Assembly (NCBI GenBank): GCA_026023565.1
Contig: JAPETS010000012.1
Location: forward strand, 558,001-622,000
DNA length: 64,000 nt
Reading direction: 5' to 3'
DNA from: Cirrosporium novae-zelandiae
Lineage: Eukaryota
Part shown: positions 42,119 through 62,947 of the stretch, piece after piece
How positions within the stretch are numbered: the first letter of the stretch is position 1
How the letters are laid out: each line of letters opens with the position of its first letter
Notes under the pieces: model-generated
Database searches by the model: none
Told to the model about the DNA's origin: nothing
The model's input: only the letters and a program-made list of their open reading frames with translations
Translations under genes and position numbers: made by a program

Positions 42119-45100
42119 TTAGACCTGTGTAGGGGTTCCCCAATCCTCAACATCGATTGAATTTCTAGCCTTCCGACTCTTAGGCTTCTGGCTATTACTT
42201 CTTCTAGCCTTCTTGATATTATGCCATTTATCCTGGATGAACTTGAAGGCTCTGCTCTCCTGCCACTTTTCCTGAAAGGCCTTAGAGTCTCCACCCTCTT
42301 GGGACTTATCACGCATTTTGATCCACTTCCCCAAGCTAAAAGCAAGACCATAGGTAATCACGACAAAGACAAAGATAAGTCCTATGAACAGACCGAGGCT
42401 GGGTTGGTTGGGGAGGATACCATCGTTTACGGAGAAGAGACCGGCTACGAACCCCAGGGGGAGGTAGACGATGGTGATGAGGGTGAGGATGCGGATGTTT
42501 TCCCCCTGGGCAGTGGCGATGTGGCTTTCCTGTAGGGAAACAATGCTTTGCTGGACGTTGGTGATGGCCGTGATGCTGTCGCGGTACTGGGAGATCTGGT
42601 CGATCTTTTGTTGCATGTCGCTTTCGACGCGGGAGAGATCTTTGAAGCGCTTTTTGAATTCGTCGATGACTTGTTCGTATTTGGTGTTGAGTTCGTAGTG
42701 CATGCGGCTTCGTTCCTAGGATAAGAGTTGATTAGGTTTTGATAACTCACAGTTCGAATAGTGGAAACATACTTCCTTGAATGTCTGATTTGCAGTATCT
42801 TGTACTTTGTCGATTACTGAAATGGACTGAACGAGTGTACCGTACCACACGCGGAGCGCCTCAAACCCCCAAACAATGCGGTGGAGATCACGTAATCCCC
42901 CCTCGGAATTGGATACCTCCATACCTTCAAAAATGAGCCGAGACTGTGCTGCAGTTAGATCAAGAGTTATATACAGAATATATATAAGACTTACCGACAG
43001 CCCCACCCGATCCTCGAGATCATTCACAAGTACCGTATAGTCTTCAGCCAATTTATGGCAGAAATGCCCTAGCAGGATAAGAAATGACAATAACCTTCCA
43101 CTCGCCTGCCTATATATAAATAACCGCGAAACATCCTGTACTTCCAAGACGTATTTGTCCATATGCCTCTTGTCGATGATAGATGACACCATGGAGCAGG
43201 TCCAGAAGTGGCCAAGAGGATCACCTGTAAAGACTATGGAGGACGAGCGCTTCTCCAGCTGCGTGCCCTTTTCCTGTTCGTCATCCTTCTGTGTACTGTT
43301 CTCCGTACTTTTAGTAGAAGTCTTGTCGTTTGACCCCTTTAGGCTGCTGCTTTTAGAACTAGGCCCTGGCAGCTTTTCCGGAGGATATGGACCTGTATCC
43401 CTCTGTTCGCTAAACTGTTCAGATAATTCTTCGGGAAAATCTTTGGATTTGAAGCCCCAGTGAGATATTGTGATAGATGTCGTCCATATACTTGAATCGC
43501 TCTCAGGTTTAGTATCCGTGAATCGAGATCTAGAGCCGAAATATTCATCAAAGGTGTCCAAAGCATCAGGATGCCAGACATATATGAAGGCTTGGGCCAT
43601 AGAGGGTGAAAACCTTTGAGCAAATCTATTCAGAAGCAGCAAATCAGCCAAGTCGATATTGGTAAGCATATAAACTCACAGGATTCGATGCTTAATATTG
43701 AGATCTATCAACTACAATGGGTCAGTGTACAACCTTGTGTATAAGAGAGTTCAACTTACGCTATCTTTCAAACGGTCTAATAACTTGTTTTGGTGTTTCA
43801 CTTCAAGCTCATTCTCATTTGATGGCTCCGATAGCTCATTTATTTTGATTGTATAAGGTTTCCTGTTCAAGTCCACAGTGATATCAAATACACTCATGAA
43901 CAGGAGTTGATTTGGAGGAACACATTTAGCAATAGTTTCGGTAGAAAAGTCGAGAATAGTCTCTGTTGACGAAGAATTATCCTTTCCATTTCTTTCTTTA
44001 TTGGTTCTTACATATTTTTTAATTTGGCTTCTTAGATTCACCTTTTGAAGTTGCTCCGTCTGGAAGTTCTGGGGTGTATCATCCAAAGACTGAACCATAA
44101 AGGTGGGATAATACGCTCTTGGAGGTTTAAATTCTATCCACTCAATATTCTTGGGGTCATCGGGCTGTGGCATCCTCCTGATCGCCTTCTGAAGCATTTC
44201 CATCATGTTGTCCTCTTCTGGTCCCCGATGGCTTGAAGTTTGTGGCTGTGATACTGATTCCACCGGGGCTGGTAGAGTAGCCTTTGAAATTAAATCGAGA
44301 AGTGTGGAGCACACTATGCTGGAGGCTTCAATGCCCCACCATCCTTTGAGGGCTTCTTCTGTGCTCCAGTCCCAAGAAGATACAAAGCTATAATCCGATT
44401 GTAGAAATTGGAAACAATCTTGTTTCTTCGATGATATCATTTCAGACTCTTCATTCGTAACGAAAGCTGCCATAAGACGGGTATGATGGTTTAAGCAAGT
44501 TAGTTCCCATGGTGCTCGAACCAAATCGCTTTTTAAGGACTCTTTCTTGGAAGACCCGGGACTGAATATTGTTGTTGGCTTCCTAGATTTGAGCCTCTTA
44601 AACGTTTGGCTTATATAAGGACCATCCGCGAATTTCAATTCGTGAGAAAGAAGAGCCAAGCGGTCAGCCTCTTCGTCCTCTGTGACGTACTTTTCGGCAT
44701 TCTTATCTTGCTCTTTTCTCAAGAACCTCAAATATTTTTCCGAGGCAAGTTTCCAAGTCTTTTCCTGACTCTCGATTTTGGAAATAGAGTCACAGTCCCC
44801 GGCTTTAGCATTTGAATTGCCTAAATTTATTTTTTCGTGGATCTCACGGGCGCAATGAAAATGGTACCGCCAATAAAAGGCATGTTGTAACTTGTCTAGC
44901 GTTGATTTGCTCCGATCAGCTTCGGGCCTGGCGCCCATTTCAAGAAACTTGGAGTGGCCGAATGGGTATAATTTCACTTGTAGTATGTCCCAGAAATGGT
45001 TATCGATGGCGTCGCTGCAGTATTCCATAACATACCAAATAGATATGGTCCGAAAAGGGATTCCAGTCGTGTTTTCATTTCGGCCTCTATTTGTATAAAG

Positions 45101-46933
45101 ACTGATTGAGGATAAAGGTAACGAAGATCTGCCTTTTATTAATTCGTCATCTATGCATGTTAGCCATACTAGAGCACTACGAATGCACAACTTGATTCTT
45201 TTGAGATACTCCTCCTGTGTATCAATCGTACTTTGATCGATAGAAGAGCCTGAGGAGTTTCCCAACTGTGGTGAGGGTCGAGATTCTTTAACATATCTGT
45301 ACACTTTGACGAGAAACCGAATTTGCCAACTAGAATCACGTCAAAAGGTGCTAGATGAAGGAGGACACAGAGTATCCATACAATGTGCTTTGAAAATCCA
45401 CGAACTGAGAAGTCATGATATTGGTGATAAGTGCGGTACCCAAATCGCTTATAGCTTCATCTATATCCATCGAGGCAGCCATAGCGGTCTCATCCGCTTT
45501 ACTCTGGTTATGTAGACTTTGATCCCTTTCATGGTCTCCATTGGTAAGTTTCGGAGACGTTGCGTCTGTGATAGTTGTCTGCTCCATATAATTAGTGGTT
45601 ACTTCGGAATTGTCGGCAGATTCCTTAGTGTCAGCCGACGGTTCTAACAATATTGGACCTGATGAAGGGTGCGAAGTTGCGTCTTCGTCTGTCGTTGAAT
45701 CCAACACCCCCTTTCCTGTTAGTTTCTCGTTGCTTTTTTCAGTGTGCTCGTGGAGAGACAAGAGAGGATCAGTCATATGTATGGGGACAGAGGAGACTCC
45801 CATAATCCGTTCCACACATCTTGCAATAGCGCTCAATTCAACATCGAGGTTAGAATCAGCGTTCTTGTTTTCAAGAGTAGACCACAGCTTTCCCGTAGAG
45901 TAACTTTTGTCCGTAACTCCCAAGTACTCTTCTACATCTCTAGACGACGGAGCAGAAACCAGAAAATTGCTTTTAGAGCCCACTTTCAGATCCGTTCTCA
46001 AAGAGAACGCCACCATGATTATCAAACGATTCCCTTTAGAAAGTTGCTGTAGGTACTCGGCCGAAATATCTATTTGACCTGGTTTTTCTCGTTCACTATT
46101 AACACGAGTCGAGTCCTGAAGCACTCCATTAACGAATAGTCGAACCTCAAGTCGAACATCGTCGTATTTTGAACACCTATAAGATCTCCCCTTGCCGTCT
46201 TGAGCTGATGTAAGAGAACATGGCCTATTAAGATGGTCGTAGCGAATTTGTTCATGGCGGCTGTGCCCAAATCGAATCGGTCCCCCAAACTGGAATCTGA
46301 CCTCATATTTCTTATTTTCGTCATCGTTCCCTGGAGCGTACAGTTGTAGACGTACGAGTTGGAAAACCGTGTGATCCTTGACGAATGAGCATACATCATA
46401 GTTTCCAAGGCTATTTTTAGCTGTCTGATCTGAATTTTCGACAATTTCATAGTTCATATAAGGCCAACGATAGTTGATCAAGCCTTGCGCAAAGCAACCT
46501 CCTAGCCGCAAATCCGGTCCCGCCCGTAAGTGTACACCCCAGCTTCCACCCATTTCAATCCTAGTTTTGGATCTTGCGAGTATCGCTCCAGCATTGTCAG
46601 AGAAGTCTCCCCGAACGTATACGATACCGTATTTCGGATGTGGGGCAGTTATCTGAAGCAATTTATGCCAGTCTGTCACAGACCCGGTATAGCCGTCGGC
46701 TCCGAAATCTATTGCATTTGGGGATCGGTCCCAGTCAAGAGGCTTGAAGTAGTCTTCTATAATTGCGGTTCTAAATGTTAATTCTGGCTACCGCTAAAAC
46801 AAACGACAAGAAATAGGAATACCGGTATTGAATGGAAGGGGATTTCACCAGAGACAATGCGATCGTTACTGAGCCAACTAAAGTCGTCTTCTGCCTCTGG
46901 ACTTGAATCCTCCGACGAGGTGCTAACTGACAT
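42119..46933 (-). CDS. Large multi-exon protein with a C-terminal CorA-like two-TM module
   Basis: ATG at 46933 (MSVSTSSEDS...), spliced through four large ORFs. It ends in a coiled coil plus QGENIRILTLITIVYLPLGFVAGLFSVN and a second TM helix. Confidence 0.8.
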
Positions 46934-47706
46934 GATATATATTTGCTGAACAGACTATGGTTCAATAGGTAACTCGTAAGAATTGAGAAGCTTAGACTTT
47001 CCGGACAGACGTGCAAGGCTGCTACTCTTATTTTATCTGACCTCCTGTATCACGGATTTATTCCCTGCATTTATTAATTCTGAATGTGTCCTCTCTTAAT
47101 AATTTCAAATGCCGAGGAGAAATATTGAGAACCATGGCTGAAAGGCGACATTCCGGGATCCTTGGAGATACTGCCCTTCAATTTGCCCATGCAAGTGAGC
47201 TAATGCAGCCTTGCAGCCCTCCCGTAGGCTTTATTACTTTAACTCCCTATTTCGATTACCTCGTAGTCCTTTTTAAATAAATTGTGGTAAGCTGAAGCAT
47301 GCTAAGGCTCTGCCTAGTCTTGTGTTCTGACCAGATCATCAGTGAAAGGAATACACTAGGCCGACTAGACTAGGCTTTTGATCAATTAGTTAGAACATGA
47401 TTACTTCAGGATTATTTTGGCTTAGATGCATATGAATTTTATGGTGGTTGAGTGGATTTTCGTGGTGTTGAGGTTTGCTGGGGGAGGGGAGCTGTGTGGC
47501 TAGGAAGTACTTATCGCCTAATTAAGACAATGGCGCATTTTTAACTATTCTTAGCTACTCTCCACCCCTTTATTTTCGAATAATTTAAGGATTGATTAAA
47601 TACAATGGTTATTCCTGTCTACGAAGCTACGATTCACGACACTATAGAAATCATGTTCTTAAACTATAAATTAATTTGTATATAATTATATATCTAGAGC
47701 TCAGCT

Positions 47707-49044
47707 CTAGTTGACCACGCCAGGACGAGAACCCCAAGCGACGGTGGAAACGGTAAACAATGCATACAATTTCAACAAAGAATGGTAATAGCCAAAAAGA
47801 ATATACATCGGAAGATAAAGCAAATCCCTGGGATGCCTGCAGAAGTGTGGGAAAGGCTTAACTAACTTCGAGAGAAGGATCCAGAGGCCCAGCACACTCG
47901 AGCAGAAATCGACACTGTATCCGGTCTCCAGCGCTGCAGCTCTGCATAGGTAGATGAGGCCCGCGTCCGTGAATAGTGCAAAATTGAAGAACGAGGTGAT
48001 GTAGACGGCATAGACGCACCACGGTTGCGATTTCCAGACCGTCCGATCGGCGAACAGACTTGTAGAGTTTGATCGCCATGTCGTGCGGACCCATCGCAGG
48101 CACTGGAGGTTGAATTTCTTGAAACCTGAGACCCCCAAGGTAGTTTCCATGAGCGCTTCGGACGAGGACTGGAACTTGATCCCCCAGTTGCGGCTCACTA
48201 GCCAACGGGTGATGAAGTTGTCGTCGTCTGCGTTGAGGGGTCCGATGTTGAAAAGGCCGGGAGCAAACATCTCATTCATGAAAGCGGATTGGAAGTCATC
48301 ACGACAGACAATCTCACTGCGGTATGCTGCCGTGCGGCCAGAGATGACAAAGACGCCACCGTCCATCTTGTTGCTAGATGCGAGGTCGAAGTTGTGGCGC
48401 TCGAGGTATAGACATCCGATGAAGTTCCAGAAATCTTTAGGTGAGAAGAGGGAGCTCGTCGCACGACGAACACGCTTTCCGCAGGCAACACCACCAATGC
48501 TGGGGTCTTCGAATGGAGAAAGCATAGCCCTAAGAAATTTAGCAGGCCAAAAGACATGGTCATCGGCAAAAACGACAATCTTTGTTTTGACCTTTTCAAG
48601 ACCACGACAGAGTTGAATCCTTTTGTTAGCGGTCTCAGCAACAATAAGGGACACCCGGGGACCTATCTTTGTGCAAAAATCCTGAGCTTTTAGGAGATTT
48701 TTCTGACCGACGGTAGCCACTAGGATTTCTGAACAACCAGTCGCGAGAGCTGAGCGGACTGTGTCTTCAAACTCCTGGCCGTAGGGCTCAACGGTTGGGA
48801 TAATCACCGTGACATCTAACGGAGAGTAAGTGGGGCTTCTAGGAATGGGATTAGGGGTATAACCTTGGTAAGCAAACATCCCTATCACAAGTCGGAGGTA
48901 GCGAAAAACGAAGAGCCCGAGAAAGATTTTGGCATAAAGTGTGTTTGGATAGACCACTGCACCAAGTAAGATTGTGATGACAGCAATGAGGAGATAGTAG
49001 GACCGGCCTACTAAACCTTTTGGCGTGTTTAGCATCTGGGGCAT
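47707..49044 (-). CDS. GT2 processive polysaccharide synthase (Cps1 / hyaluronan synthase-like)
   Basis: DVTVIIPT, ANKR, FADDHVFWP, ISGRTAAYR, ADDDNFITRW, QCLRW (QxxRW), TM helices and terminal WGSR. The start is uncertain. Confidence 0.9.
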   Translation of the reverse strand: MPQMLNTPKGLVGRSYYLLIAVITILLGAVVYPNTLYAKIFLGLFVFRYLRLVIGMFAYQGYTPNPIPRSPTYSPLDVTVIIPTVEPYGQEFEDTVRSALATGCSEILVATVGQKNLLKAQDFCTKIGPRVSLIVAETANKRIQLCRGLEKVKTKIVVFADDHVFWPAKFLRAMLSPFEDPSIGGVACGKRVRRATSSLFSPKDFWNFIGCLYLERHNFDLASSNKMDGGVFVISGRTAAYRSEIVCRDDFQSAFMNEMFAPGLFNIGPLNADDDNFITRWLVSRNWGIKFQSSSEALMETTLGVSGFKKFNLQCLRWVRTTWRSNSTSLFADRTVWKSQPWCVYAVYITSFFNFALFTDAGLIYLCRAAALETGYSVDFCSSVLGLWILLSKLVKPFPHFCRHPRDLLYLPMYILFGYYHSLLKLYALFTVSTVAWGSRPGVVN

Positions 49045-49188
49045 TCTTACCTTGTCGTTTTTTTGTAGTTGGCGAGGAGTCAACGTCAATTGGTATCAAT
49101 ACCGTTGATCCGTGGGATATAAACCTGTATAGTAGTTATAATGAAGAATGAAACTAAAAACCTGAGGCATCCTTCTCGCTGATATACA

Positions 49189-49374
49189 TTATCTAGACAA
49201 AGAACACCTCAAAGACAAAGAACACCTCAAAGACAAAGAACACCTCAAAGACAAAGAACACCTCAAAGACAAAGAACACCTCAAAGACAAAGAACACCTC
49301 AAAGACAAAGAACACCTCAAAGACAAAGAACTGAGCTCTCTCGGGGCCGAGGTGAAAGAATCAAACAAAGGCAT
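49189..49374 (-). CDS. Putative 61-aa repeat peptide MPLFDSFTSAPRELS-(SLSLRC)x7-SLSR; either a uORF of the GT2 gene or a small gene
   Basis: True ATG in acaATG context; the frame stays open across the minisatellite. No expression evidence. Confidence 0.3.
   Translation of the reverse strand: MPLFDSFTSAPRELSSLSLRCSLSLRCSLSLRCSLSLRCSLSLRCSLSLRCSLSLRCSLSR
49195..49331. repeat. Perfect 18-bp minisatellite AGACAAAGAACACCTCAA x7.6
   Basis: Units start at 49195, 49213, 49231, 49249, 49267, 49285 and 49303, with a partial unit at 49321. Confidence 0.97.
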
Positions 49375-49563
49375 TGTAAATAGAAGGGGTATCTAAATAA
49401 GGAGGACATGTACAAAAAAAAATACAGTAGAACAGTGCCCTTGTTCCATACACAAAGGCATTGTGAAGAATCGAAATGGCGCAAATATATATACCGGTGA
49501 TAACTCCCCAGCAATGTTATTCTCTCCATCAGTCCAAACCATCACACAAAAGCTCACACAATC

Positions 49564-50142
49564 ATGGCAGATCGCAAAGACCCACCAATCGCTTCAAAAG
49601 CGTCCATTCCCGCACTCCCCCACTCCAAACCCCTCCCCCCGGCCCCTCCCTCAGTCCCCAGCCAGCGCACATTGCCGCTCTTGTCTTCCTCAGCCCCCCC
49701 CCTCCTTTCCACCACCCCAGCCTCCGCCTCTTTCTGTCGGCCCCAAGCCGCAGCTCATCCTTCTCCCCTCACCACCTCTCCCTCTCCCCTCCAGCCCTCA
49801 GCCCCCATCCCCATCCCTCATTCCACCCGCCCAAAGACTCCGGCTTCTTCTCCTTCCTTAATTCCCCCCTCAAGGAAGAAGCGAGTCACCTTTGGACAGA
49901 CCGAGGTGAAGGTGGTGGAGCGATGGATAAAGCCGGACGGGGCTATGCGGAAGAGGTTTGAGGAGAATAAGAGACAGGTGGCGAAGGAGAAGAGGGCGGC
50001 CCGCGAGGAGCTCTTGCAAAGCATAGGGAGAGCGAGGCAGGTGACGGGGAGTGGAAGAGGCGATGGAGGACCGAAGGTGAAGGTGAGGATGATGCGGAGA
50101 GCTCATAAAGATGAGCTTTGTTCCTCTTCTTTTTCCTTTTGA
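49564..50142 (+). CDS. Pro/Ser-rich disordered protein with an RVxF (KKRVTF) motif and a basic helix
   Basis: atcATGG start; 192-aa ORF containing SRKKRVTFGQTEVKVVERW. Confidence 0.55.
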   Translation: MADRKDPPIASKASIPALPHSKPLPPAPPSVPSQRTLPLLSSSAPPLLSTTPASASFCRPQAAAHPSPLTTSPSPLQPSAPIPIPHSTRPKTPASSPSLIPPSRKKRVTFGQTEVKVVERWIKPDGAMRKRFEENKRQVAKEKRAAREELLQSIGRARQVTGSGRGDGGPKVKVRMMRRAHKDELCSSSFSF

Positions 50143-50581
50143 GTGGATTCATCCGATGGTATTGGATTGATCTATTTTGTCTTTCTCTTTTCTTTTGCTC
50201 AAAAGCCTGCTTTTGAGTTTTCCTATGTCACTGTCATACACATATATATCAAAAAACCAAAATCCAATAAACCAAAAAATTGTTCCCAGCAATAACCAAT
50301 GATCCAAGCCTGTGCAATACAAGTTCCCAAGCTGAATTAGTAAACTTCACCTCCATTGATAAATGAAAGGTCCTAGTAACTAGTATAAAAAAATAAAATG
50401 ATGTAAATTTTCTGCTTATAGTTATAAATCTTCTTTGTCAAACAATAGGTGGATTCATCAATTGATCCATTGTTTGTTGCTGTTGCCGTTGGCAGAAGGA
50501 CTCCTTTGTTTAGTGGAGTTGGGTTGAATGGTTTAGACTTATGGCCGCAATGTTATGCCGAGGCAAAATATCCAAGCGAGC

Positions 50582-50722
50582 CAGCATACAGCATACAGTA
50601 CATACAGCATACAGTACATACAGCATACAGTACATACATACATACATACATACATACATACATACATACATACATACATACATACATACATACATACATA
50701 CATACATACATACATACATACA
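50582..50722. repeat. 16-bp repeat (CAGCATACAGTACATA) x3 followed by a (TACA)n microsatellite
   Basis: Directly visible; the TACA tract spans about 50631-50722. Confidence 0.95.
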
Positions 50723-51122
50723 GCCAAACTGCGCCGTACCGTAAACTCACTACTTGGGCGTATAGTTTCCGTCATTAATTATTATTCATGTCATTTAAGT
50801 CCCAACACAATAAGCCATTCGTATAAATCCCCAATCATACAGATCTTATAAAGATCCTTCCTCGTTGGACTAATGTAAGTAGTTTCTGCGATGTGATCGA
50901 TGCGACGCGATACGATTCGATGCTATACGACACGGAAACCTGCTTACTATGATTATACCCAAGTTAAATTACCCCCATCCAAGTTCGTGATATTTGCATG
51001 CATGCATCAGCTTATCAGCCAAGCCTCGGAGGTCTTGCAATCCGAGTACCAATCTACACTATAAGATCATCCATCCAAGCTTACACCAAAAAGAGTGCCC
51101 AGAAATAAACCACCTTGTTTGT

Positions 51123-51620
51123 ATGGCGCCCCTCCCAGCCTTTCGCCATTAGGATGTTTCTAAAAGATGCGAAAATCCTCTAGAAATTCCGAGGTATCCA
51201 GCACGAAAATGTCGTCTGCTTTGGAATGCTTTCGATACAAGGAATCGATCTATATCTCTCATGAGCGTCTACCCGTCGCTTTGGATCACCTTGTTGCCTG
51301 TCCAGTCTACCCTAGTGAAATCTAGTTGGCCTCAGTTCTAGCCTAGGTGATCTGTCCACGATGAACGATCAGCGATACCGCTAATGGCCAGTGGATTCTC
51401 AATAGTTTATGGTACCTTTCAGCAAAGGGCTTCGAGCACCCATCCTTGACTTGCTTGAATATCCTTGTGAGCTCATGGAGAGGTCAAAATCAGTATGAAA
51501 CCATTATCTGCATTGAGTGGACGGACCATGACTGATCAAATATCACAGCGAGCTTAAAATGCTGCTGTACACGGCACACAGATCAGGTCCGACATCAAGA
51601 CATCAAAGCATTATGAGTTT
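51123..51620 (+). pseudogene. Protein kinase-like pseudogene with RIP-like mutations
   Basis: FAIRMF..KIL*KFRGIQHENV / SALECFRYKESIYISHERLPVALDHLVACPVYPSEI*LASVLA* | intron | ILNSLWYLSAKGFEHPSLTCLNILVS / GEVKI | intron. TAG stops at 51181, 51323 and 51344. Confidence 0.75.
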
Positions 51621-51710
51621 TATCAAGGCGTAATACATATATATGGAGATCTCAAGCGACAGAATATCTATTTACATGAATCTATCACGGCAGTCATTTA
51701 CTATAAAATC

Positions 51711-53074
51711 TTATGGGATGACCTCCACCGAGTTATTGTATTTGGGATACTTTAACTGTTTCCTATCGACCAAACCCGCTTTCAACGCGCGCTTCACGTC
51801 AGGCAAAAGGGCTTTCATCTCGTCGATCAGGAACCTGACCGTCACGCACACCGCCTTGAACCCTTCCTCCCCCCACCACAGGGTTTCGTTTGCGTACAGA
51901 CACCTCCCACCACAGGTGTCGAGCACATCACACCCCTTACATAGCCCTCCAATGTGGACTGCGTCCCGGATGTTCTTAGATACGTCCAGGTTGTTGAGGT
52001 TGGCCACGCTACGGTACTCTGGCGCGATGGGGCACACGGTGATGTCGCCACCTTCGCTAACGGTAAAGCTGTTGAGGCCCGAGCTGCATCGGAGTCTGCT
52101 AGGGCGTTTGTCCAGCATGGTATCTAGTATGCCGAGGAAAGGCACGATACCCAGGACGCGACCCCGTGCCAGCTCGGTGCGAAACCATTCGGCTAGCCGG
52201 TGGATGCCCGGGTTATATACCTCGTCGCGCCAGCGGAAGAAGTCGTCGTAGCCGCTGTAAGCGGGAGTGGTCCACTGAACGTCCAGCTGCCAATGCACGT
52301 GGTCGAAGAGGTCCATCTCGATGAGGTCCCGGACGTCGCGGTAGATATCAGACATGCTATGGCAGGTCATACGAGCGATGAGGTCGCCCTTGTAACCGGC
52401 TTCCTCGCGCAGCATGCGGACGTTGGTGATAGCCTTGTCGAAGGTTCCTATGCCGCGAGACCTGTCGGTGATGGCCTCATCGCCGTCGATGGAGATGAGA
52501 ATGCTATCCATGCGGTTCAGCACTTCGTAGTTGTCGCGGGTGAGGATGCGCTGATTGAGGAGGGTGCCGTTGGTTTGCAGGCAGAAGGTAGCTTTGGACA
52601 AAAGGTTCATGGTCTTGACGATGACACGAGGCTTGAGTAGGGGCTCACCGCCGTAAAAGCAAATGACCAGGCCCTTGTTAGTTGCCATTAGCAAAACAGA
52701 CACAGCAATTACTTGGATGGCATGTTACGGGAGTAATAATAAACGGAAGCGAAAGCGAGTTCAAAAGTGAAAAAAAGCGAAGTTAAAAACGGTCAAAACA
52801 CCATAAACAAGCACATAATTAATACAGAGGACGTATGACCGCACAAATAGATAGCCAACCACGCATGGATCCTCACCTCTGGGTCCGGCTTGCGCGTGCC
52901 AGGCATAGGGAGAGCCGCCAACTTCTCCAGCTTACGAAGATCCTGCACGGAATATTTAAGCGTCTTTGGGTGGAGGGCCAGCAGGGAGAGATCCTCGATG
53001 TCGACATTCTCAATAGACCCGCAGTAGGTGCAGGCTAAGTTGCACTGCTGCGTAAGCGTCAGGAAGAAGAGCAT
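51711..53074 (-). CDS. Radical SAM/SPASM enzyme, AF0577 (TIGR04084)-like putative peptide-modifying family; 2 exons
   Basis: Exon 1 (53074-52877) carries CNLACTYC (CxxxCxxC). Intron 52876-52674 (GTGAGG...GCTAAT...AAG, phase 0). Exon 2 carries FYGGEP, QTNG, SIDG, HWQLD and the SPASM cysteines RCSSG...VCP...CKGCDVLDTCGGRC...VC (CxxCx5Cx3C). The family assignment is from memory. Confidence 0.9.
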
Positions 53075-53346
53075 GGCCGGCGAAGTTCAACAAGGGTCTT
53101 GAAGGGAAACAGGGGGGAGGGGTGGGTGGGTAGGTAGGTAGGGATTACCAATGAATCGGGATGCGGGAAAAAAAAAAGAAAAAAAAATGATAAGCCGCTT
53201 GCTGCACGACCGTTGTGCAACACACACTACTTTAGATGATATTCAAGTTTGAAGGAAAAAAGAAAAGGATCCTTCGCGTTTTAAGCGAAATGTGTTGTCT
53301 TTTCAAAATTCCTTTTCAAAAAATAATTAAACTAAAGAAAACCTCG

Positions 53347-53478
53347 TGTTACAATTCCCACAGTGGCATTACCTGGTTAGGCTAGGACTGTTAGGGCATA
53401 TGCCTTGACATCATTTGATTTCTACGTATAGCTAGAGCTACAGCTAGAACTCCCGCAACCTTATTAGGTATTCTAACA
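53347..53478. mobile_element. Possible degenerate solo LTR or short transposon relic
   Basis: TGTTACAAT...ATTCTAACA terminal inverted repeat (8/9 match, TG...CA ends) in AT-rich DNA; no target-site duplication found. Confidence 0.3.
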
Positions 53479-55073
53479 ACGCAGTTTCATAAGTTAAGCA
53501 CCCTTAGATTTTTGTGTGGTTTATTAAGCTTATATTTTTAAAGCGTTGGTAAATAGATTAGTTCAGTGGTATGATTTATGTTTGGAATGCCAAGATATAT
53601 GCACGTGATGTCAGTCATGGGATCTAGGTGTCACATGACGTCACTTTGTATGGATGTGTGATGTTCCGGTAATTATATCTATTAGACTAAGTCTAATTAA
53701 TTTATTCCATGCCAAGACTAGCTAATTAGTATATATATATCTATGGCATAACCTTCATAAGAATTTATTCTACACTGGCATGCATCCTTAACAACACAAC
53801 AAAAATAACAGATGGGATATTTTATTTCCTTAGTTTCACGGCTTAACTTACTTAGATCCTAAAGCCCACCACATAAGTTCCATCAATTTCTGAAAAAAAA
53901 AATTTATATTTAGTTAAGTATACACTCTAGATCTAAGCCCCCCCCCCCCCCCTATCGAGCCCTAATTATATCCTAGTCGTCTTTGACAAAAAAAAAAAAA
54001 AAGACTTAACTTTTATAGAGACTTCTGTGTACTACTACGGCTAGCTCTATTTATATTGAAATTTTGCTTTATATATATATATATATATACTTGTACGAGC
54101 TCTTAAACTAGTTTGCGGTGATATATATATATATCAACCCCCACCCCACATCAGCCGTCGCTGTTTTCGAGGTTTGTGGGAATATAGTATCATTTGACTT
54201 GGTTGATTAGGAGAATAACTTGAGCGAAACTTGAACCTGGATGGTGGGTGGGTGGGTGTTCTTTACCCTCCTCCCCTCTCCCCCCCGGTTGGAAGGAAAG
54301 GGGGAAGAGAGCAGCTTAGATTTCTTCGCACAAACGAATGGCTGATATTCGTTCGTTCTTCCATCTACTAGAGCGGTGTTGCGTCCCCCTTTTAAGGTGT
54401 CTATTAAATACGTCTTTTACGAGGCCACAACTATGCTTAGGCTTAACGGCATCTTTCGACTATGCAGGAGGAGCCTTGCAGAGGGGTTAGAAGATTAGGA
54501 GTTTTTCTTCTTTTTCTTCTTCTTCTTCTTCTTCTGGTGCCTGACCTTAGTAGCCCCCAGATCCCAACTAGTTCGGGAAATCGATTGGTAATTAAAGGGT
54601 TGATTGAGGTGGTCCGGGACAGAGTAGCAAGCTTGGACTCTAGATTGTAGGTTATGTCATCTCTGATCTTTATTCTGGTGATGAAAAGATTTGAAGTGGA
54701 CTATTCCTTGATATTTAGCTACTGGTAGTACCAGTTCTCTGGCGGCGGGAGAGGGACTCGGAAAGGTTTGTAGAAGATGGTGGAGCTCGTTATTTGTCGC
54801 TGGTCATGGGCATTCATGCTCGATCTGGGGTTGGGATATAGCTTAGTCCGCGCCACTGCCTACCTATTTAGGTTGTGTCACGCACAATACTATTCTACGG
54901 TTGTCTCGTTACCCGCTCTAACAATGGTATCGACTTTCATAACTGTGTACGCTGGATAGCAATATATTTTCCCGTTATGCCTAGCTCCCACAATGGATTT
55001 CGCCTTAGTTCTATGCTATTTGCGCCTAACACTCTAAAAGGTATCGCTGCTATCTTGTCTGCGACATATGCAA

Positions 55074-58000
55074 CTATGTCCAACAGTTTAAAACCTTCCT
55101 ATCTGTCCATTCGCAACCTGACCTTACTGGTATCGAAAATGACTCTTCACTAGCCTCATAGAATTCAAATAATTTTCGCTCCTCTGCAGGGGTAAAGTCC
55201 ACTCCTTCCTGGCCCACTTCTTCCCAATTGAAGTTTTCCACGAGTATCACCGCTGGGGGATCGAAGTTCCCGTATTCAGGAACCAGGTAGGCACTGTTGT
55301 CTCGTATGGGGTGGTAACGAAAACAGACTTCCCTTGCAGAGGCAGGGAGATACATCGTTTGCATTAAGTGCAAAGTCCAGCTCTGTTTGGGCGCGGACTT
55401 AGCCATCGGGAGAGCAACTTTGAGAACACTAAGCGTGAGGTTGCTAAATGACACATAAACCGTATCGGTGGCCCAGGTGAACGCATGGAGAAGGCAGTAC
55501 GGCCGCAGAAAGCGTCGTGAAGGTTGTGATAATTTCCACGGCACTGATGTTGATGACAAAATCGCTTTTCCATCTAGAAGGCTTCCATGCTTTTGAGGTG
55601 ATGATAATTTTCGACTCGTCACTATGAGAACCCCAGCCGAGCAGTGCTCAGTTTTGCAGCATATCGATGCGGTATGGAGATAGTCTCCGTCCGGAGAGAA
55701 TCTAATATCTTCGCCCATATTAGCAAGAGCAATCGGGGATAATAAAAAGGTATTTACCACAGCTGATAATCTTCTCCTCGTCCGGTTTGACATCAGCACT
55801 AAGATCGAATTGTTCAAAATTGCGGTCTGTAGTTGCGTAGGACATTAGAACGACCCTACCTGATCCTGCATACCAGGCCACCAACTTCTGCTGTGGGTGC
55901 AACACAGGTGTACCTGGAAGTCCTATGCCAATGTTCGATGCGTGGAACGTTGCCTCTTTCCGAGTCTTCTTCTTTTTTGTGTCGTAGATAGTCAACTTGT
56001 AGCAAATTGGAACACTTTCTACCTCTTTCCCTGCCGCTACTTGTCCGGTATCATCATCATCGCTTTCATTATCATTATCGCTATCTTCACTGGAAAAGGA
56101 CGGTGAGGAACGATCGGCACTAGGAGCCTCTGGACCACTGGCGCCATCCCTGCTCCGCCTTTGACGTTGAATTTTCTTGATGGCTTTTTGTATAGCCTCC
56201 GTGAATACTGCTTTAACCTCATCTTTACATTCTTTCAGCATCTTCTCCAGCTCTTCAACGTCTACGTCCGTAAGACTAGTAGTGCTTGCACGGGAGATAT
56301 GCGCTAAATCTTGTTTTGTGCATTCCCAGCGCCTAGCAACTGCAAGCACATTTCCGTAAGTCGCAAGTCTGATAACAGAATTATCCTTGGTGAATTTGGC
56401 TAGCGCGGGGTGGCTTTTATGCTGCAAATACTTCAAAAGCCCATCACGGAAACGGTGATTAGAATTCCTTTTCGAGCTTATACTGAAGGAGCATACTCTG
56501 TCCCGAATCATTAGGACGATCGTCTCAGCGCATCCTGAAATTAATGGGCGAGTAGATATGCAAGATGTTTGGTGCTCTTTGCAAGAAATATCAGACCTTA
56601 TGGACATCGAGGAGTCAATATCAACCTCGAAAACTCGCGCCCCTGATAGGCTTGGTTGCTGCGCAGAGCCCAGACTCCATTGAGTGAGGACAAGGCAAGT
56701 GTTTTTGTTTGAACTAAAGGTGTGGGTCAAACTTGCGGTTCTGGGTAATTTAGAGTGAAGTGAGACTTACAGCTCATCAATCTTTGGTGGCAGAAGACAG
56801 CTGACAACCAAAATACCGAGCTCTTGACCTATGCAAATGATTGTTCGTGTGGGCTTTTGCATCGAATCGACCTGCCCATTAGGCTCTTTAGTCTTGATTG
56901 CGCGATTCTCATACAAGATTAACTCTTTTCCGAGAAGAACTGATGAAGATTCTTCCTTGGCAATACCCCCGCAAAAGTCTTCGTCGCCGATAAGCCCAAT
57001 TATGCATCCTTCCAGCCGGCCTGGATGACTCTTCAAATAGTAACCCCATTCCTTGACGAAACGGAAGTAGGTATAAGCAGCCGCCCTCCCCTGGTCGTTA
57101 TAAGTCCCAAACCATCCAGGCAAAGCGTCCGCATAGCTGATTTCATGTTCGGAGGAAAAAAGCGACTCGCCAACGAACTGAGAAAAGTGGTACGGAGCGT
57201 AGAGACTTTGCATCTGTATACATGTGCGGAAATTCTTCGACCTCCAGAACCTGTAGGTCTCCTTGAATAGACCTTCAGTTACATCATTCAGTTCTATAGG
57301 CTCCAAATGCTTGTACCAGAAGATCGAAGCATACTTCAAAAATGCGTGTTCCTGCTGGAATTTGGGATCTTGCAATTCTTCCGCAGATCTAGGACTCAAA
57401 AAGCTCGAGCTTTTAAGGTATTTCAAACAAAGCTCTCCCAAGCGTTTATTTCCTGTAGTCTTGGTGAAGAAATCTTGTCTATCCAAAACATAGTCTTTCA
57501 CTTTGGAATGTGTTAGAAGAAAGATTGGATCATTTTCACTTCCTGAGGTGTCGACAAATGGACCGCAAAGATTCTGTAAGGCTCCCTTAATCGGTTTGTT
57601 GATTTCATGCCGTAAGAAAGGTATAATGGTGTTGTCACTACTGTCCCGGTCTGCTTGAAAGGCGTCTTCAAGCTCAGAAAGCCGCAGAGGTTTCATTGAA
57701 AAGACGACTAAAGTCAGCAGTAACTTGAAATTTTCACCAATGCACGCTTTCTCAGTGCACCTATCCCAGGCTGCGTTGTAAAGATTTTGGAGGCCCTCAT
57801 ATCCCTTACCCCAACCCTGCTCGAGGGAGTCAAAAATCTCTTTCCAGGTTATCTTGGATTTTATTTGATTAACCAAAAGGGAAGCATATAGAAAACACCC
57901 TTCTGATTTCTCAACAATAGTGTTGATGAATTTGTCGATGTTTATCTCAGCTGTCCTTAGTTTTTCCGAAAGCTCTGAGGCGGCGAACGTTGCGATATCT

Positions 58001-60003
58001 TGATCAATCCTCGAACTCCGGTGTTCGTTCATGCGAAGTTCTCGGAGCTCTAGGAAACCTTGGAAGACGACTTTGATGTCCTGAGTGACACGGCTAGTGA
58101 AAATCCACTTCGTCTTTCTTAACACTCCGGGACAGTAGTTGTATAATGTTTCAAGACGCTTCAGGATCGCGACAGGCTCTGGATGTTCATCTAAACCATC
58201 GACAATGATATAGACCTCGAACAGATTGTAGAGGGTCATTTTTATTAGCTCTAAAATATCGGTCACGCGTTTTTCAGGGTTTATTGGTACCCCACAACGT
58301 TCCCACTGCTTAAACATTTTAGTTTGGTCGCTTGTCATGTGCGTTTGCATGGCAAGGAGCTGAATAGCTAGACTGCTGAGGACCGCACAGTTGTCTTGAC
58401 TCTTGCAGAAGAAGAACGCAACGTGCTTCGCCTTCTCCGGTATTCTCTGATCGTTGCGGAATTTACTGATGATCTTTGAGCAGAGGGTAGATTTCCCGAC
58501 GCCAAAGCTACCATTCACCCATAATGCTGCGTTATGCGATGCATTTATCCACCATTGATACTCGGCATCTGAGAAAATCCAGTCCATGGTCTTATCACAC
58601 CTTTTCTCCAAAGCTTGTTCAAGATCGACTTCTACATCATGCTGATTTGCGGAGGCCAAAATCTTGCGAAGGCCATCTCTTGTTTCCTTTTCAACGAGCT
58701 CACGTTCATTGCGGACACTTTCTTCTGCTTGAGCATTTATAGACTTGAGTTCTTCGACTTTTAAATGCAGTATTGATTCTTTAATATAGAAATATAAAGA
58801 GTTAGCAACACTTTCTACGTAGCTGATGAGTACATGTGATTAACAACCTTGACGCTCCCGAATTCCATTGGTCCATTTGTTCAAAACAAGTCTCACGTCC
58901 TCATATCCATTAGATCTATGGTGGGAGAACTTTGTCATCGTAACATGGTTTGCTTGGATTCCAATGGCATCTTTGCCCTTAATGATCGAGGATCCATCCG
59001 CAACAATCTAGGGGGAATGAAATTAGTTTATCTCGAGAATAAAAGAGAATATGAGAAACACTACCTTCCCGAATTGCCTATATTCGAACTCTTCGTAAAA
59101 GGAGATGATCTCCCATGGATTCTTGTCAATAATAATGTCGTGAAACTTGTTCTCGATAGCAAATAGAATTTCGGACTCTTGACCCAGCGCTGATAGGAGC
59201 TGCGTATTGTTGTTGAATGGCTTTGCAAGTATTGCGAGCTTTTTAGCATAATCTGCCTTCGAGGAACCTGCGTGCGGTGTTGAAAAGAAGGCAATGCCGT
59301 AGGTAACCTCCTTGATATACGAAAATTTCTTGGGCAGCATATCACTGACAACCTGATTTGATGAATAAATACATTGCTACATAAGGTGGTGATAGAAAGC
59401 TTACGCATTCCACTAGCAGGCCACCAAGGCTATGGCAAACGAATATTAACGGACGCTTAGACTGTGGTTTTGATCTGTTAGCGACTAGTACATAGTGGTG
59501 GATTAAAGCCATACAGTTCCATCTTCACCTCGGAACAAATCTAATCTTGTTGCAAGGGCTTGTGCGTGCTGGTACAAGGTGTTCTTGCTAACACCACCCT
59601 TCAAACTCACTATGGCCGAGTTGTAACCGAAGGACAGGATCCGCACAGATTTTAGATTTGGCTGAAGCAGCTTCGTGGGCCAAAATTTGCCCTTTTCCGC
59701 TGACCAAGTATCAAGCGCGTCGCCTGTGAGCCCATGGACGAACACAATACTATAAAGATGTCAGTGGTATGTAATCTTCGATTCTACTGTGTTGACTGAC
59801 TCGACTATCTCTGTCCCATCAACAGGTCCCCTCACCATTAAACCATCGTTGGAACAGTCAAATTCCCCCGTTCTAGGATAATAATATTAGGTTCAAAGTT
59901 ATGACAGGACGGCGCTAAGGCGCAAGCATCGCCAAGCAAGTACGTACCCGTCCTCCGTATTCCCGTTGGGCGAGGTAGAAGTCTTCTTAAAAAACCACGT
60001 CAT
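55074..60003 (-). CDS. Fungal NLR-like protein: SesB-like alpha/beta hydrolase + NACHT + C-terminal beta-rich domain
   Basis: ATG at 60003 (MTWFFKK). Hydrolase motifs IVFVHGLTG, FWP, RILSFGYNS, RPLIFVCHSLGGLL, FFSTPHAGS and SFYE. NACHT Walker A GSFGVGKS, Walker B IIVDGLDE, WIFTSR and EGCFLYA. Multi-intron, e.g. 56770-56714. Confidence 0.9.
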
Positions 60004-60730
60004 CACTAGATTGACGCTTCGAGGGAGAAATCTTAAGGGGAAAAGGTGTACTCTGTAGAACTAATGGAAGAGGGTGGTCGATTAATACTGAAACTTCTGA
60101 TGAGGCTGAAAATGGACGAGGGTTGCAAAGTGCTTACACTTGAATCACCTAGAAGGAAGGCAACCGTCTGCGAACCGCCAAGAAGGCTGGATCAAGTCAC
60201 TCATCAATGTGGGGTTGGCGTATTCGCGGACAAAAAAGGCCAGCCTCTCCCTTTGGTGGTGGAGGGAAAGCGACTTTCGATGACATCGATCCAGAAAGCA
60301 TAAAATAACTAAATTATGAGGCGATAACCTCAAATCAAGTAAGGAGGAGAATGGAAACCATGCGTTAGTAGAGAGAGGAAGATTCCAATTGGATTCCATT
60401 CTCTGTGCCTGGCTAGAATAGTTGGCCCTTAGGCTTCCACAACAGCATGCCATGAAGCTGTCACTCGTGTAAAATAAAACTGCATAACGTGCAGCCTTAG
60501 GATTGGAGCTGCACTGTAGCAGCAGACAGATTGCAATGCTGAATACTTCGCCTATTAGCAGCAACTCCTTTAATAAAGCAGAGCATTGCTGCCAACTAAA
60601 TTTATGATACTTTAAAGAGAAAGCCTTGGGTATATCATCGAAACTTGGATGTCATTTTCCATCTATTTTTGATCCTTCTACTCAATCGGAACCCATCATA
60701 CGCAATTCCAGAACTCAGCGAGAAGAATTC

Positions 60731-62947
60731 ATGGAAAGTTCCGACAGCGAAGAAAACACCAAGGTGAGACTTGGTTTTCGATTGAGAATCTCGGAGGGAT
60801 GGAAAGGAGTATTCAGCAAGAAAAATCCGCCTAAGCACCCATCCGAGATATTTGCCGGTACAGGGCTCAAAACTCTGAAGAAGCCAGGAGCAGCAAAAAA
60901 TGAGGAAAATGGCACGGCTGAGCCTCACGAGGAAACTCCTAGATCAGGACTCTCGGATATGCATCGCCCCCCGCCACCTCTTTGTCAACCCACCAGTCCA
61001 CCCTTCAAAAATGAGCGTCTTGCCCGAGGGACAAGGAATGAGTGCAAAACCCTCGATGCCCGATACACCAAGAAGGGGGATTATGAACTCAATGAGAGCA
61101 CCCGACCTTTTCATTATGCCGCTCACCGAGATGCGTACTCAATATTTGATGAATACTGCATGGTCATTACTCGTCGTTTTGATCAGGATAATAAGCTCAT
61201 CTCGACAACCCTGAAAATCCAGTCTCCGTTTCTCCTCAAAGCATTCCGCACCATTGTCAAATACTATCCTGATAACCCCGTGAATATCGGCAATACTGTC
61301 AATGTTAAAGATCCTCCAGCCTTAATTTACCACTATCGCCATGAATTGGCTGAATATGCAAGCCAGGAGGATGTAGATGACCAGACAAAATTGCACATTG
61401 ACTACGTCTTGGAGCATCTTCAGATATATATCGGTGAAGATATACAACAGTGTGACAAGTACCTTGCCAAAGGCCTAATCAAATTCGAATGGCTATGGAT
61501 GATATTCCGCTCAGGAGGTCTTGTCTATTCATCCAAATCCGACCAGCTTTACTTTTTTCAACGTGGTGAACTTACCCAAACTCAAAGCGGGGAACTGGTG
61601 TACAAGCTTCACTGCAATATTGTTAACTACGACGGGAAAGATGTTGGCAAGGAAGAAGTTCAATTGTTTATTCCAGCCTATGAGAGCGCTCGTGAGCTTA
61701 CCGCATTGGTGATCATGCCGCTTGAACACTGTGTTGATGTAGAAGGGTTGAAGAATAAGCTTATCAAACGTGCCAACACTTTCCTGGAGCTTCGAGGTGT
61801 CCATGCTCGGAATCATGACGTAAGCTGGATTCCAATCCCCGTGAAACGCCAGAGCCTGATACTCATCCTAATAGACCATCGGTCGCGTCATGATAGACTG
61901 CAAAATCTTCCAGGAGCGTCAGGGCGAAAATATCGCCTTGAGCAAGAAGTGCGCCTGTACCTGCCGAGTCTGCAAGAAAGAGGACGAGGAAAAGCCGGAA
62001 GATTACGATCACGAACTACGTGAGCTCTCGGAGCAGGACATGCTCATTACTTCTTCCATTGTTCTCGGGTTCTCATTGTCGAAGCACAACTGGATGTCTT
62101 TTCGAATCAGTGACCTGTCACAAATTAAATGGTCCGACAATGCGATCGAGAGTTTGGTAATGGATACATCTCAGAAAAAGGTTATCCTCAGTTTAGTCAC
62201 ATCTCCAATCTTTCTTAAGGGCCTTTCTACCGACGTAATTGGATGGAAAGCCAAAGGGCTCGTAGTTCTTCTTCACGGGTCGCCAGGTACTGGAAAAACG
62301 TTGACAGCGGAGTGTGTCTGCGAGAAATTACATCGCCCGCTCTATAACGCGAGCGGTGGAGAACTAGGGTCTACTCCGGCCGGTCTAGAAGCGGCTCTCA
62401 AAGACATCCTTGAGTTGTCGGCTCGCTGGAATGCCATTATCTTAATCGACGAGGCCGATGTCTTTTTAGAGCAACGGACTGCAGCTGATATTCACCGGAA
62501 CAGTCTAGTGTCAAGTATGTAAGCTCAACATCAAAGTATTGAATAGTATATGCTAATCCTGGAATGTTAGTCTTTCTACGTCAGCTAGAGTACTTTGAAG
62601 GAATGTTATTCCTTACCACGAACCGAGTAGAGCGATTTGACAAGGCGTTTACTTCTCGAATACACCTTGCCCTGAATTTTCCTGATCTTAGTCCGGATAT
62701 GAGGCGGGAGATCTGGGTTAATTCACTTAAGCGCCTACCAGCGGAGGATGTTGACATCGACTATGACGAACTATCATCCCCGTTGAATTCCCTAGTCGAA
62801 GCAAAGCTAAACGGTCGTGTTATAACCTACGCTGTCCGGACAGCAAAGGCGTTGGCGGAAGCGGATAAAGAAAAGTTGACGGTCAAACATTTGCGGGACG
62901 TAGTTGATGTGTATCAAAAGTTCTTGGCGACTCTTCCGTATCGATGA
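60731..62947 (+). CDS. Fungal AAA+ ATPase (DUF7025-type N-domain plus AAA)
   Basis: LKIQSPFL and IKFEWLWMIFRSG; Walker A GSPGTGKT; Walker B ILIDEAD; LEYFEGMLFLTTNR...SRIH. Introns at about 61820-61874 and 62516-62570. Confidence 0.92.

Follow-up and report, generated by a model that had tools for sequence, protein, structure and literature searches.

A rare TIGR04084 radical SAM/SPASM gene in a filamentous ascomycete and its probable place on a eukaryotic branch of an archaeal family

Background

Enzymes that pair a radical S-adenosylmethionine (SAM) barrel with a SPASM region have been described as anaerobic sulfatase maturases, such as anSMEcpe, as maturases of ribosomally synthesized and post-translationally modified peptides (RiPPs), such as PapB, CteB, ChlB and SuiB, and, in Archaea, as the GMGT synthase Gms, a lipid enzyme. 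According to the relevant portion of its published description, Gms exceeds 420 amino acids, has an N-terminal six-helix domain, and occurs in obligate anaerobes only, being absent from Sulfolobus acidocaldarius (PMC11186832). The gene analyzed here lies on the minus strand of a 64,000-nucleotide stretch of Cirrosporium novae-zelandiae (contig JAPETS010000012.1 of assembly GCA_026023565.1, positions 558,001 to 622,000; hereafter the window, with position 1 as its first letter) and encodes a member of the NCBIfam family TIGR04084 (rSAM_AF0577). The literature that we searched contained no paper on this family and no published function for its members in Neocallimastigomycota and Phytophthora. 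To our knowledge, no fungal role has yet been assigned to a radical SAM enzyme of the SPASM type, and the enzyme encoded in the window falls outside the usual fungal set.

Sequence comparison confirms that this filamentous ascomycete has a TIGR04084 gene that is real, intact and rare, in other words a new member of a known family. Beyond this, we hold with moderate confidence that it is probably a working nuclear gene of Pezizomycotina, that its product is an enzyme with three [4Fe-4S] clusters acting on a conserved cellular substrate, and that it descends from a eukaryotic branch of the family.

The gene and its product

The gene consists of the following parts:

51711..53074, minus strand: entire gene from ATG to stop codon, with two exons, an intron between them and a product of 386 amino acids
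52877..53074, minus strand: exon 1, residues 1-66, start codon at 53074-53072
52674..52876, minus strand: predicted spliceosomal intron, 203 nt, phase 0, GTGAGG...GCTAAT...CTAACAAG
51714..52673, minus strand: exon 2, residues 67-386, stop codon at 51711-51713
53021..53044, minus strand: CNLACTYC (C11, C15, C18), ligands of the radical SAM [4Fe-4S] cluster; C11, C15, Y17 and C18 invariant in 34 sequences
52641..52655, minus strand: YGGEP, residues 73-77; Y73, G74, G75 and P77 invariant
51846..52088, minus strand: SPASM region, seven cysteines for two predicted auxiliary [4Fe-4S] clusters (C262, C280, C311-x2-C314-x5-C320-x3-C324, C342)
51941-51900, minus strand: SPASM core CKGCDVLDTCGGRC, motif match
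51714..51749, minus strand: C-terminal tail YPKYNNSVEVIP, typical of the family; E383 and P386 invariant

The translation of the joined exons matches the deposited protein P0003 (386 aa), which is annotated as hypothetical, at every letter. Three relatives argue for the intron between 52876 and 52674. P0216, which is 61% identical over residues 1-148, reads through the spliced junction DPEGLIICFYGG without a break. P0123, which forms one 90% cluster with P0004, has a 27-aa in-frame insert precisely at the junction between PDPE and GLVICF, and this insert has the look of an 81-nt intron left unspliced at the position where the window gene has its own. Finally, P0247 is 89% identical across exon 1 (residues 1-66) and its similarity is gone immediately past ...DPE. 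The window protein, P0123 and P0247 have in common an insert of about 11 residues (AALPMPGTRKP) shortly before the splice site. The intron has a GC content of 0.40, close to that of the flanks (0.37-0.43), and the exons have 0.56-0.57. GC at third codon positions (GC3) is 0.74 and 0.75 in the two exons, the highest among the window pieces measured; the 26 other open reading frame (ORF) pieces range from 0.42 to 0.74, the upper value being reached by a resident DAO-domain ORF.

Against TIGR04084, for which the curated whole-protein cut-off is 225 bits, the complete product reaches 309.3 bits (E 2.9e-92, model positions 3-347 of 347) and exon 2 on its own 294.7 bits. Hence, judged by sequence, its membership of the family is far beyond chance. 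Other NCBIfam families remain well under their cut-offs (PapB, 72.5 against 340 bits; the anaerobic sulfatase maturase family TIGR03942, 40.9 against 349 bits), and PF04055 is the sole Pfam family detected. In the 34-sequence alignment, the window protein agrees with the other 33 sequences at each of the 34 columns where these are invariant, and at each of the 19 columns conserved in at least 90% of them. Among the SPASM cysteines, six of the seven are invariant and C342 occurs in at least 90% of the sequences. The YGGEP stretch is what we take to be the glycine-rich SAM-binding motif. The family tail (...YPxYNNxxE[IV]IP) is equally well kept: 116 of 120 homologues (P0003-P0122), the window protein included, terminate in IIP or VIP, and the exceptions (P0016, P0071, P0078 and P0108) in TIP or IVP. 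Four full-length proteins, two from Entamoeba and two relatives (P0049, P0058, P0094 and P0104), have no exact match to CxxCx5Cx3C.

An AlphaFold2 model built on the same alignment has a pLDDT of 90.4 and a pTM of 0.91. Its first strand comprises residues 2-6 and the CxxxCxxC motif begins at residue 11, as in most archaeal homologues, which leaves no presequence. Many rows of the eukaryotic clade described below (P0011, P0023, P0032, P0035, P0047 and similar ones) carry an N-terminal extension, with the cluster motif beginning at residues 36-78; by sequence, these extensions could be organelle-targeting. The top Foldseek match in the PDB is anSMEcpe (4k39, E 7e-15, TM 0.68/0.72), followed by ChlB (9gm3), CteB (5why), TigE, SkfB and SuiB, and the fold aligns with anSME and CteB along its whole length. 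The window protein was found to have no N-terminal RiPP recognition element (RRE) or other leader-binding domain. In one representative, P0174 (692 aa), the radical SAM/SPASM part is preceded by a fused phosphotransferase domain of the APH type (PF01636, E 8.6e-18); no further fused forms of the family were seen among proteins of 677-2000 aa.

An earlier sequence-only reading of the window had proposed much of this, and its account of the gene itself was accurate. Re-reading and translating the minus strand returned the same coordinates and motifs, the comparison with relatives speaks for the intron that it had drawn, and the codons are C/G-ending, as it had remarked, next to AT-richer flanks. 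Its assignment to AF0577/TIGR04084 agrees with a score well above the cut-off, the motif scan and the alignment bear out a complete set of cluster-binding cysteines, and the position of the first strand and of the cluster motif fits the lack of a targeting peptide. The profile searches that it had suggested gave a mixed outcome, with matches to TIGR04084 and PF04055 and none to the Pfam SPASM family PF13186 at E<=0.01.

The product would thus be a cytosolic radical SAM/SPASM enzyme with three predicted [4Fe-4S] clusters. The steps of its probable mechanism are drawn from established knowledge of radical SAM/SPASM enzymes. Judging from family and fold, the CxxxCxxC cluster would cleave SAM reductively, the resulting 5'-deoxyadenosyl radical would take a hydrogen from an unactivated C-H bond of the substrate, and the two SPASM clusters would remove an electron, leaving the substrate oxidised or cross-linked.

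Relatives and distribution

A search with exon 2 returned 3296 proteins at E<=0.001, and our statements on named relatives rest on the best 120. Among these, the window's own protein is the sole row with a fungal source name, in line with the rarity in Ascomycota that had been proposed from the sequence. Proteins of Anaeramoeba, Histomonas, Tritrichomonas, Trichomonas, Pelomyxa, Entamoeba invadens, E. marina and Blastocystis are 46-50% identical to it, and E. histolytica is not among the named rows. The look-up of clusters revealed Neocallimastigomycota (Neocallimastix, Anaeromyces, Piromyces and Pecoramyces) in a cluster 57% identical to the window protein, many Phytophthora species in clusters 53% identical, and a Euglena gracilis transcript (P0160). 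Identities are 57-58% to Neocallimastigomycota and 44-46% to Asgard archaea. The closest kin are P0004, P0123 (77-78%), P0124 and P0247, all within 75-89% identity, and hence the gene is present in at least a few related organisms. A scan of metagenomes for the DNA of these kin found none, the best match being 55%. An exhaustive search of representative proteins gave 79 clusters at E<=1e-30.

In prokaryote genomes, at least 558 relatives were confirmed among at least 601 matched stretches. According to the record titles, 79 of the best 80 loci are archaeal, and they include Asgard archaea, Bathyarchaeia, Nitrososphaeria, Thermoproteota, Thermoplasmatota, Archaeoglobi, Methanoperedens and others. 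TIGR04084 exceeds its cut-off in 91 of the 201 sampled genomes of Thermoproteota, the phylum of a Saccharolobus metagenome-assembled genome (MAG, G002), and in 17 of the 61 genomes in the phylum of a Candidatus Methanoperedens MAG (G004), nearly always with one match per genome in both. Among 14 control genomes, the cut-off is exceeded in the aerobic Sulfolobus acidocaldarius alone; the three other archaeal controls (Haloferax volcanii, M. jannaschii and M. acetivorans) remain below it. Since an aerobe has a member of the family, the argument that such enzymes are oxygen-sensitive and therefore indicate an anaerobic niche, made in the sequence-only reading, is weakened.

We also considered a viral vector and rejected it. 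There are 99 relatives on viral contigs in IMG/VR, and the 80 that were kept are all at most 31% identical and mostly partial. An Atlas cluster of 366 aa, matched by language-model features (score 0.97), is labelled "Viruses 94%, Uroviricota", a label that IMG/VR does not bear out and that may come from misassigned metagenome contigs.

Archaeal gene neighbourhoods and possible substrates

Around 80 archaeal-type loci, we clustered 930 ORFs of at least 70 aa. The family's own cluster is found in 75 of the 80 loci, and the commonest neighbour cluster in 9. A Pfam scan of 134 of the 147 adjacent ORFs (the remainder being 12 ORFs of 72-104 aa and L045:9360-10091) gave no widely recurrent partner family. 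The most frequent adjacent domain is that of a VTT-domain protein, in 7 loci, and translation-related neighbours are isolated cases (aEF2, S26e, RpoD, Nop5, a class I tRNA synthetase and Taw1). Both intergenic gaps are shorter than 150 nt in 50 of 71 loci. No precursor peptide gene or cassette was found beside the enzyme gene in the 80 loci, where ORFs below 70 aa were left unclustered. The archaeal family is, in short, stand-alone, operon-less and mostly single-copy. At one locus of a Nanobdellota MAG (L071:6359-10840), the family gene lies between two genes that have a BpsA_C (branched-chain polyamine synthase) domain, one of which is fused to a radical SAM domain.

The likeliest substrate is some conserved molecule of the cell, probably the side chain of a protein, rather than a dedicated RiPP precursor, because the enzyme has a compact anSME-like build without a leader-recognition domain and because the archaeal gene is stand-alone and mostly single-copy. 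The alternative of a RiPP or other peptide maturase, which would make thioether or carbon-carbon cross-links in a precursor peptide encoded elsewhere, is possible but in our opinion unlikely. It draws on the best NCBIfam matches after TIGR04084, which are the peptide maturases PapB (at the 72.5 bits given above), YhhB and CcpM, on the presence of ChlB, CteB, SkfB and SuiB among the structural matches, and on the JGI name of several homologues, "putative peptide-modifying radical SAM enzyme". However, the scores against maturase families are well under cut-offs of 340-720 bits, and the protein opens directly with strand 1 of its radical SAM barrel, with no N-terminal recognition domain. The archaeal loci have no conserved neighbour, and their short gaps leave scant room for a precursor gene. 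Moreover, unlike RiPP cassettes, the gene mostly occurs once per genome and has a tree that for the most part tracks the archaeal groups, and nothing peptide-like was observed beside the fungal gene. The description of the product as a peptide maturase in the sequence-only reading is therefore not backed, the RRE domain being missing from the protein and a linked precursor from the archaeal loci.

A more specific idea, which we consider doubtful, is that TIGR04084 is an oxygen-independent enzyme that completes hypusine on a/eIF5A, by hydroxylation of deoxyhypusine or another step at this residue, in two groups without the O2-dependent deoxyhypusine hydroxylase (DOHH), namely archaea and anaerobic eukaryotes. 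The published background is suggestive. In the portion of one report that treats Archaea, no orthologue of DOHH is known from any archaeal genome, hypusine occurs in Sulfolobus, Pyrodictium, Thermoproteus and Acidianus, and mainly deoxyhypusine occurs in Halobacteria, methanogens, Thermococcales and Thermoplasmatales (PMC5178350). Passages of another report describe aIF5A of S. solfataricus as hypusinated, its deoxyhypusine synthase (DHS) yielding deoxyhypusine only and the second enzyme being unidentified (PMC6105217). The spread of the family is in favour of the idea, with members in Sulfolobus and many other archaea and in Entamoeba species, Trichomonas and further anaerobic eukaryotes, and none over the cut-off in Haloferax, M. 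jannaschii and M. acetivorans; so is the fact that the substrate must be common to archaea and eukaryotes. In addition, a gene for DHS (PF01916, 329 bits) abuts the family gene, in convergent orientation, in a Nitrososphaerales MAG (L062:8001-9970), where the aIF5A gene is on a separate contig. This adjacency surfaced in a scan of opposite-strand neighbours after the hypusine idea had been formed, and it is one co-location in 80 loci over 1.04 Mb, for which about 0.5 chance occurrences are expected in the flanks, with an estimated p of about 0.07 for immediate adjacency.

A second check, for co-variation of the aIF5A loop with possession of the family, went against the idea. Two residues before the hypusine lysine (loci L166-L210), an Asgard genome and one set of Thermoproteota have T, and the remaining Thermoproteota and all 12 genomes read in the phylum of G004 have P. 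In Thermoproteota, 11 of 12 genomes with TIGR04084 have the loop T-G-K-H-G and 13 of 15 without it have P-G-K-H-G (these counts exclude two genomes of uncertain status and three loci that yielded no ORF). Yet in the phylum of G004, where aIF5A was matched in 12 of 30 genomes, 6 of 6 holders and 6 of 6 non-holders have P. Given that co-variation is not seen in this second phylum, the pattern in Thermoproteota reflects shared ancestry rather than a functional link. It further counts against the idea that the 17 holders in the phylum of G004 and the tree rows from MAGs of Methanocellaceae and Methanoregulaceae have the family, whereas methanogens, in the part of the literature cited above, have mainly deoxyhypusine. 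The published pull-down of aIF5A names no radical SAM protein (PMC6105217), and a literature search judged mainly by title, supplements aside, found nothing that links deoxyhypusine with radical SAM enzymes. If the idea were true, eukaryotes would have received TIGR04084 from an Asgard-like ancestor and lost it where DOHH sufficed, with this ascomycete retaining it in reserve for low oxygen.

A role as anaerobic sulfatase maturase, forming formylglycine in sulfatases, is very improbable. It is true that anSMEcpe is the best structural match and that one Phytophthora record was automatically named as such, but the score against TIGR03942 is far below its cut-off, and the sulfatase family PF00884 was found in two of five archaeal genomes that hold TIGR04084, both partial (weak evidence, as these are incomplete MAGs).

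Phylogeny and origin

Returning to the reading that we favour, that of a gene from a eukaryotic branch with a conserved cellular substrate, we built trees with FastTree (119 and 113 rows) and with IQ-TREE (LG+C20+F+G4, quick search, 76 rows), which are mutually consistent. A single clade takes in every named eukaryote (33 rows; support 99 with FastTree on 113 rows and 98 with IQ-TREE), and no archaeal or prokaryote row with a title or source label lies within it. The named members of this branch are Archamoebae, parabasalids, Anaeramoeba, Blastocystis, Euglena, Phytophthora and Neocallimastigomycota. In the IQ-TREE analysis, the window protein pairs with P0123 (support 100), and the pair belongs to an 8-row clade with Neocallimastigomycota, Phytophthora and P0006 (support 99). 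In an approximately unbiased (AU) test, the tree holding the other 31 rows of the clade together without the window pair was rejected (dlnL 64.6, p-AU 0.0008), the 31-row group having been defined once the tree had been seen.

The position of the protein in a eukaryote-only branch of a basically archaeal family suggests that the ascomycete copy came via eukaryotic ancestry. The sequences fit either of two routes, old retention with many losses or transfer from one eukaryote to another. Since the intron is common to relatives that are 75-89% identical, the gene would be long resident.

These results do not bear out the headline of the sequence-only reading, a horizontally acquired prokaryotic gene. 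A recent transfer from an archaeon or bacterium straight into the ascomycete, followed by domestication, might seem natural for a family that is overwhelmingly archaeal and very rare in Dikarya, and for a gene whose GC3 tops the window. However, the protein has its place within a clade of eukaryotes only, supported at 98-99, its placement outside that clade is rejected by the AU test, it is closer to Neocallimastigomycota than to Asgard proteins by some 57-58% to 44-46% identity, its intron is common to diverged kin, and its GC3 of 0.75 is nearly equalled by the 0.74 of the resident DAO-domain ORF. Because of the nesting and the AU test, direct transfer is rejected on present sampling, and we give it hardly any credence.

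Genomic setting and integrity of the assembly

Cirrosporium novae-zelandiae is classed in Pezizomycotina, class Xylobotryomycetes. The neighbours of the gene in the window include a regulator with Zn2Cys6 and Fungal_trans domains, intron-split sugar transporters, a GtaA glutaminase, a NACHT/NPHP3_N protein and a DUF7025-AAA protein. They are typical of ascomycetes, and the context of the gene is fungal and nuclear, as had been read from the sequence. Three of the neighbouring features are:

47710-49095: GT2 gene, 462-aa open frame, intact
49504-50139, plus strand: proline-rich 212-aa open frame without Pfam match, between the GT2 and radical SAM genes
55077-58839, minus strand: NACHT/NPHP3_N (fungal NLR-like) gene in three open pieces

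The view that the gene survives among decayed neighbours did not hold up. The GT2 frame is open throughout, and the in-frame stop that splits the NACHT gene (56767-56769) sits within a GTAAGT...TTTAG intron, at its GTAAGT donor, so that this gene looks intact as well.

Logan contigs of the sequencing run X1 span positions 45000-62000. Over these 17 kb the depth is even, at 344 in the gene-bearing piece and 334-363 in the rest, but X1 is a possible source of the window DNA and its depths are not independent. The contigs break at a (TACA)n microsatellite (50599-50742), at an 18-nt tandem repeat with about 9 copies of AGACAAAGAACACCTCAA (49159-49367), and at A-runs near 53162-53194 and 53980-54100. 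We examined whether the breaks at 50599-50742, 49159-49367 and 53162-53194 could be borders of a mobile element and rejected this, as they are microsatellites or homopolymers and not terminal repeats. One X1 contig has an extra C behind 53937 (depth 291 of 635), which points to length heterogeneity in non-coding DNA 5' of the gene.

Several points weigh against our overall reading. The next-best families after TIGR04084 are all RiPP maturases, for example PapB, and for this reason a peptide substrate keeps some probability. We infer the expression and splicing of the gene; a look-up over 51600-53200 found no RNA run, and the support for the intron is comparative. In the trees, monophyly of the five fungal rows is not rejected (dlnL 2.6, p-AU 0.375), but the free tree groups Phytophthora with Neocallimastigomycota. 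The trees suggest an Asgard affinity of the eukaryotic clade, which in IQ-TREE shares a polytomy with a clade of TACK and Euryarchaeota and with Odin-, Njord-, Hod- and Atabey-archaeal rows, the Heimdall rows being the next branch beyond it. The rows of this clade are mostly metagenome proteins without an organism name. As for the assembly, the organism label and the contig derive from a MAG, the Logan piece that bears the gene (50732-53952) stops at microsatellites on both sides, and only equal depth and the deposited contig of 763 kb join the gene to its fungal flanks.

The MAG label and the repeats at both ends of the gene-holding contig also speak for an artefact in which assembly or binning joined the gene of another organism, such as a protist, to a fungal contig, but this is most improbable in view of the even k-mer depth over 17 kb (with the reservation on X1 made above), of an intron and flanks whose composition fits the rest of the window, and of at least four other sequences that are 75-89% identical, among which P0123 and P0247, which cover the site, share the exon boundary.

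Significance and comparison with known systems

The single gene is of less interest than the broader pattern to which it belongs. An archaeal family with the looks of a housekeeping function has eukaryotic members that form one clade beside Asgard lineages and that persist mainly in anaerobes and in a few aerobes (Phytophthora, Euglena and this ascomycete). Such a pattern points to one of two origins, a remnant of the archaeal parent from which eukaryotes arose or passage of the gene from eukaryote to eukaryote, and each of them would mark a conserved substrate. Since the aerobic and genetically tractable S. acidocaldarius has a member of the family, the function is directly testable.

Among known systems, the TIGR04084 family itself is the closest, and the window protein resembles its other members in full-length score, in all invariant residues, in length class, in the tail and in its place in the tree. 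It differs from them by its host in Pezizomycotina, its spliceosomal intron and its insert of about 11 residues. Within the family, the nearest members are those of Neocallimastigomycota and Phytophthora, recorded as "radical SAM enzyme" or "Radical SAM core domain-containing protein", which form the 8-row clade with the window protein at 53-58% identity and whose hosts are anaerobic gut fungi and oomycetes. Unlike the window gene, the Neocallimastix-type contigs L002 and L004 have an unbroken reading frame; these contigs may be transcripts.

Outside the family, the similarities are more distant. With anSMEcpe (PDB 4k36-4k39), the window protein has in common a compact radical SAM and SPASM build of about 370 residues and the lack of an N-terminal peptide-recognition domain, but the sequences are 17-19% identical and the link to sulfatases is not supported. 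The SPASM RiPP maturases PapB, CteB, ChlB and SuiB have the three-cluster architecture and detectable sequence similarity, and the window family differs from them in having neither RRE domain, nor linked precursor, nor cassette. Gms, as far as its published description was covered (PMC11186832), is like TIGR04084 an archaeal radical SAM and SPASM enzyme with three clusters. We considered and rejected its identity with the window protein, which at 386 aa starts at the barrel and whose family is present in S. acidocaldarius.

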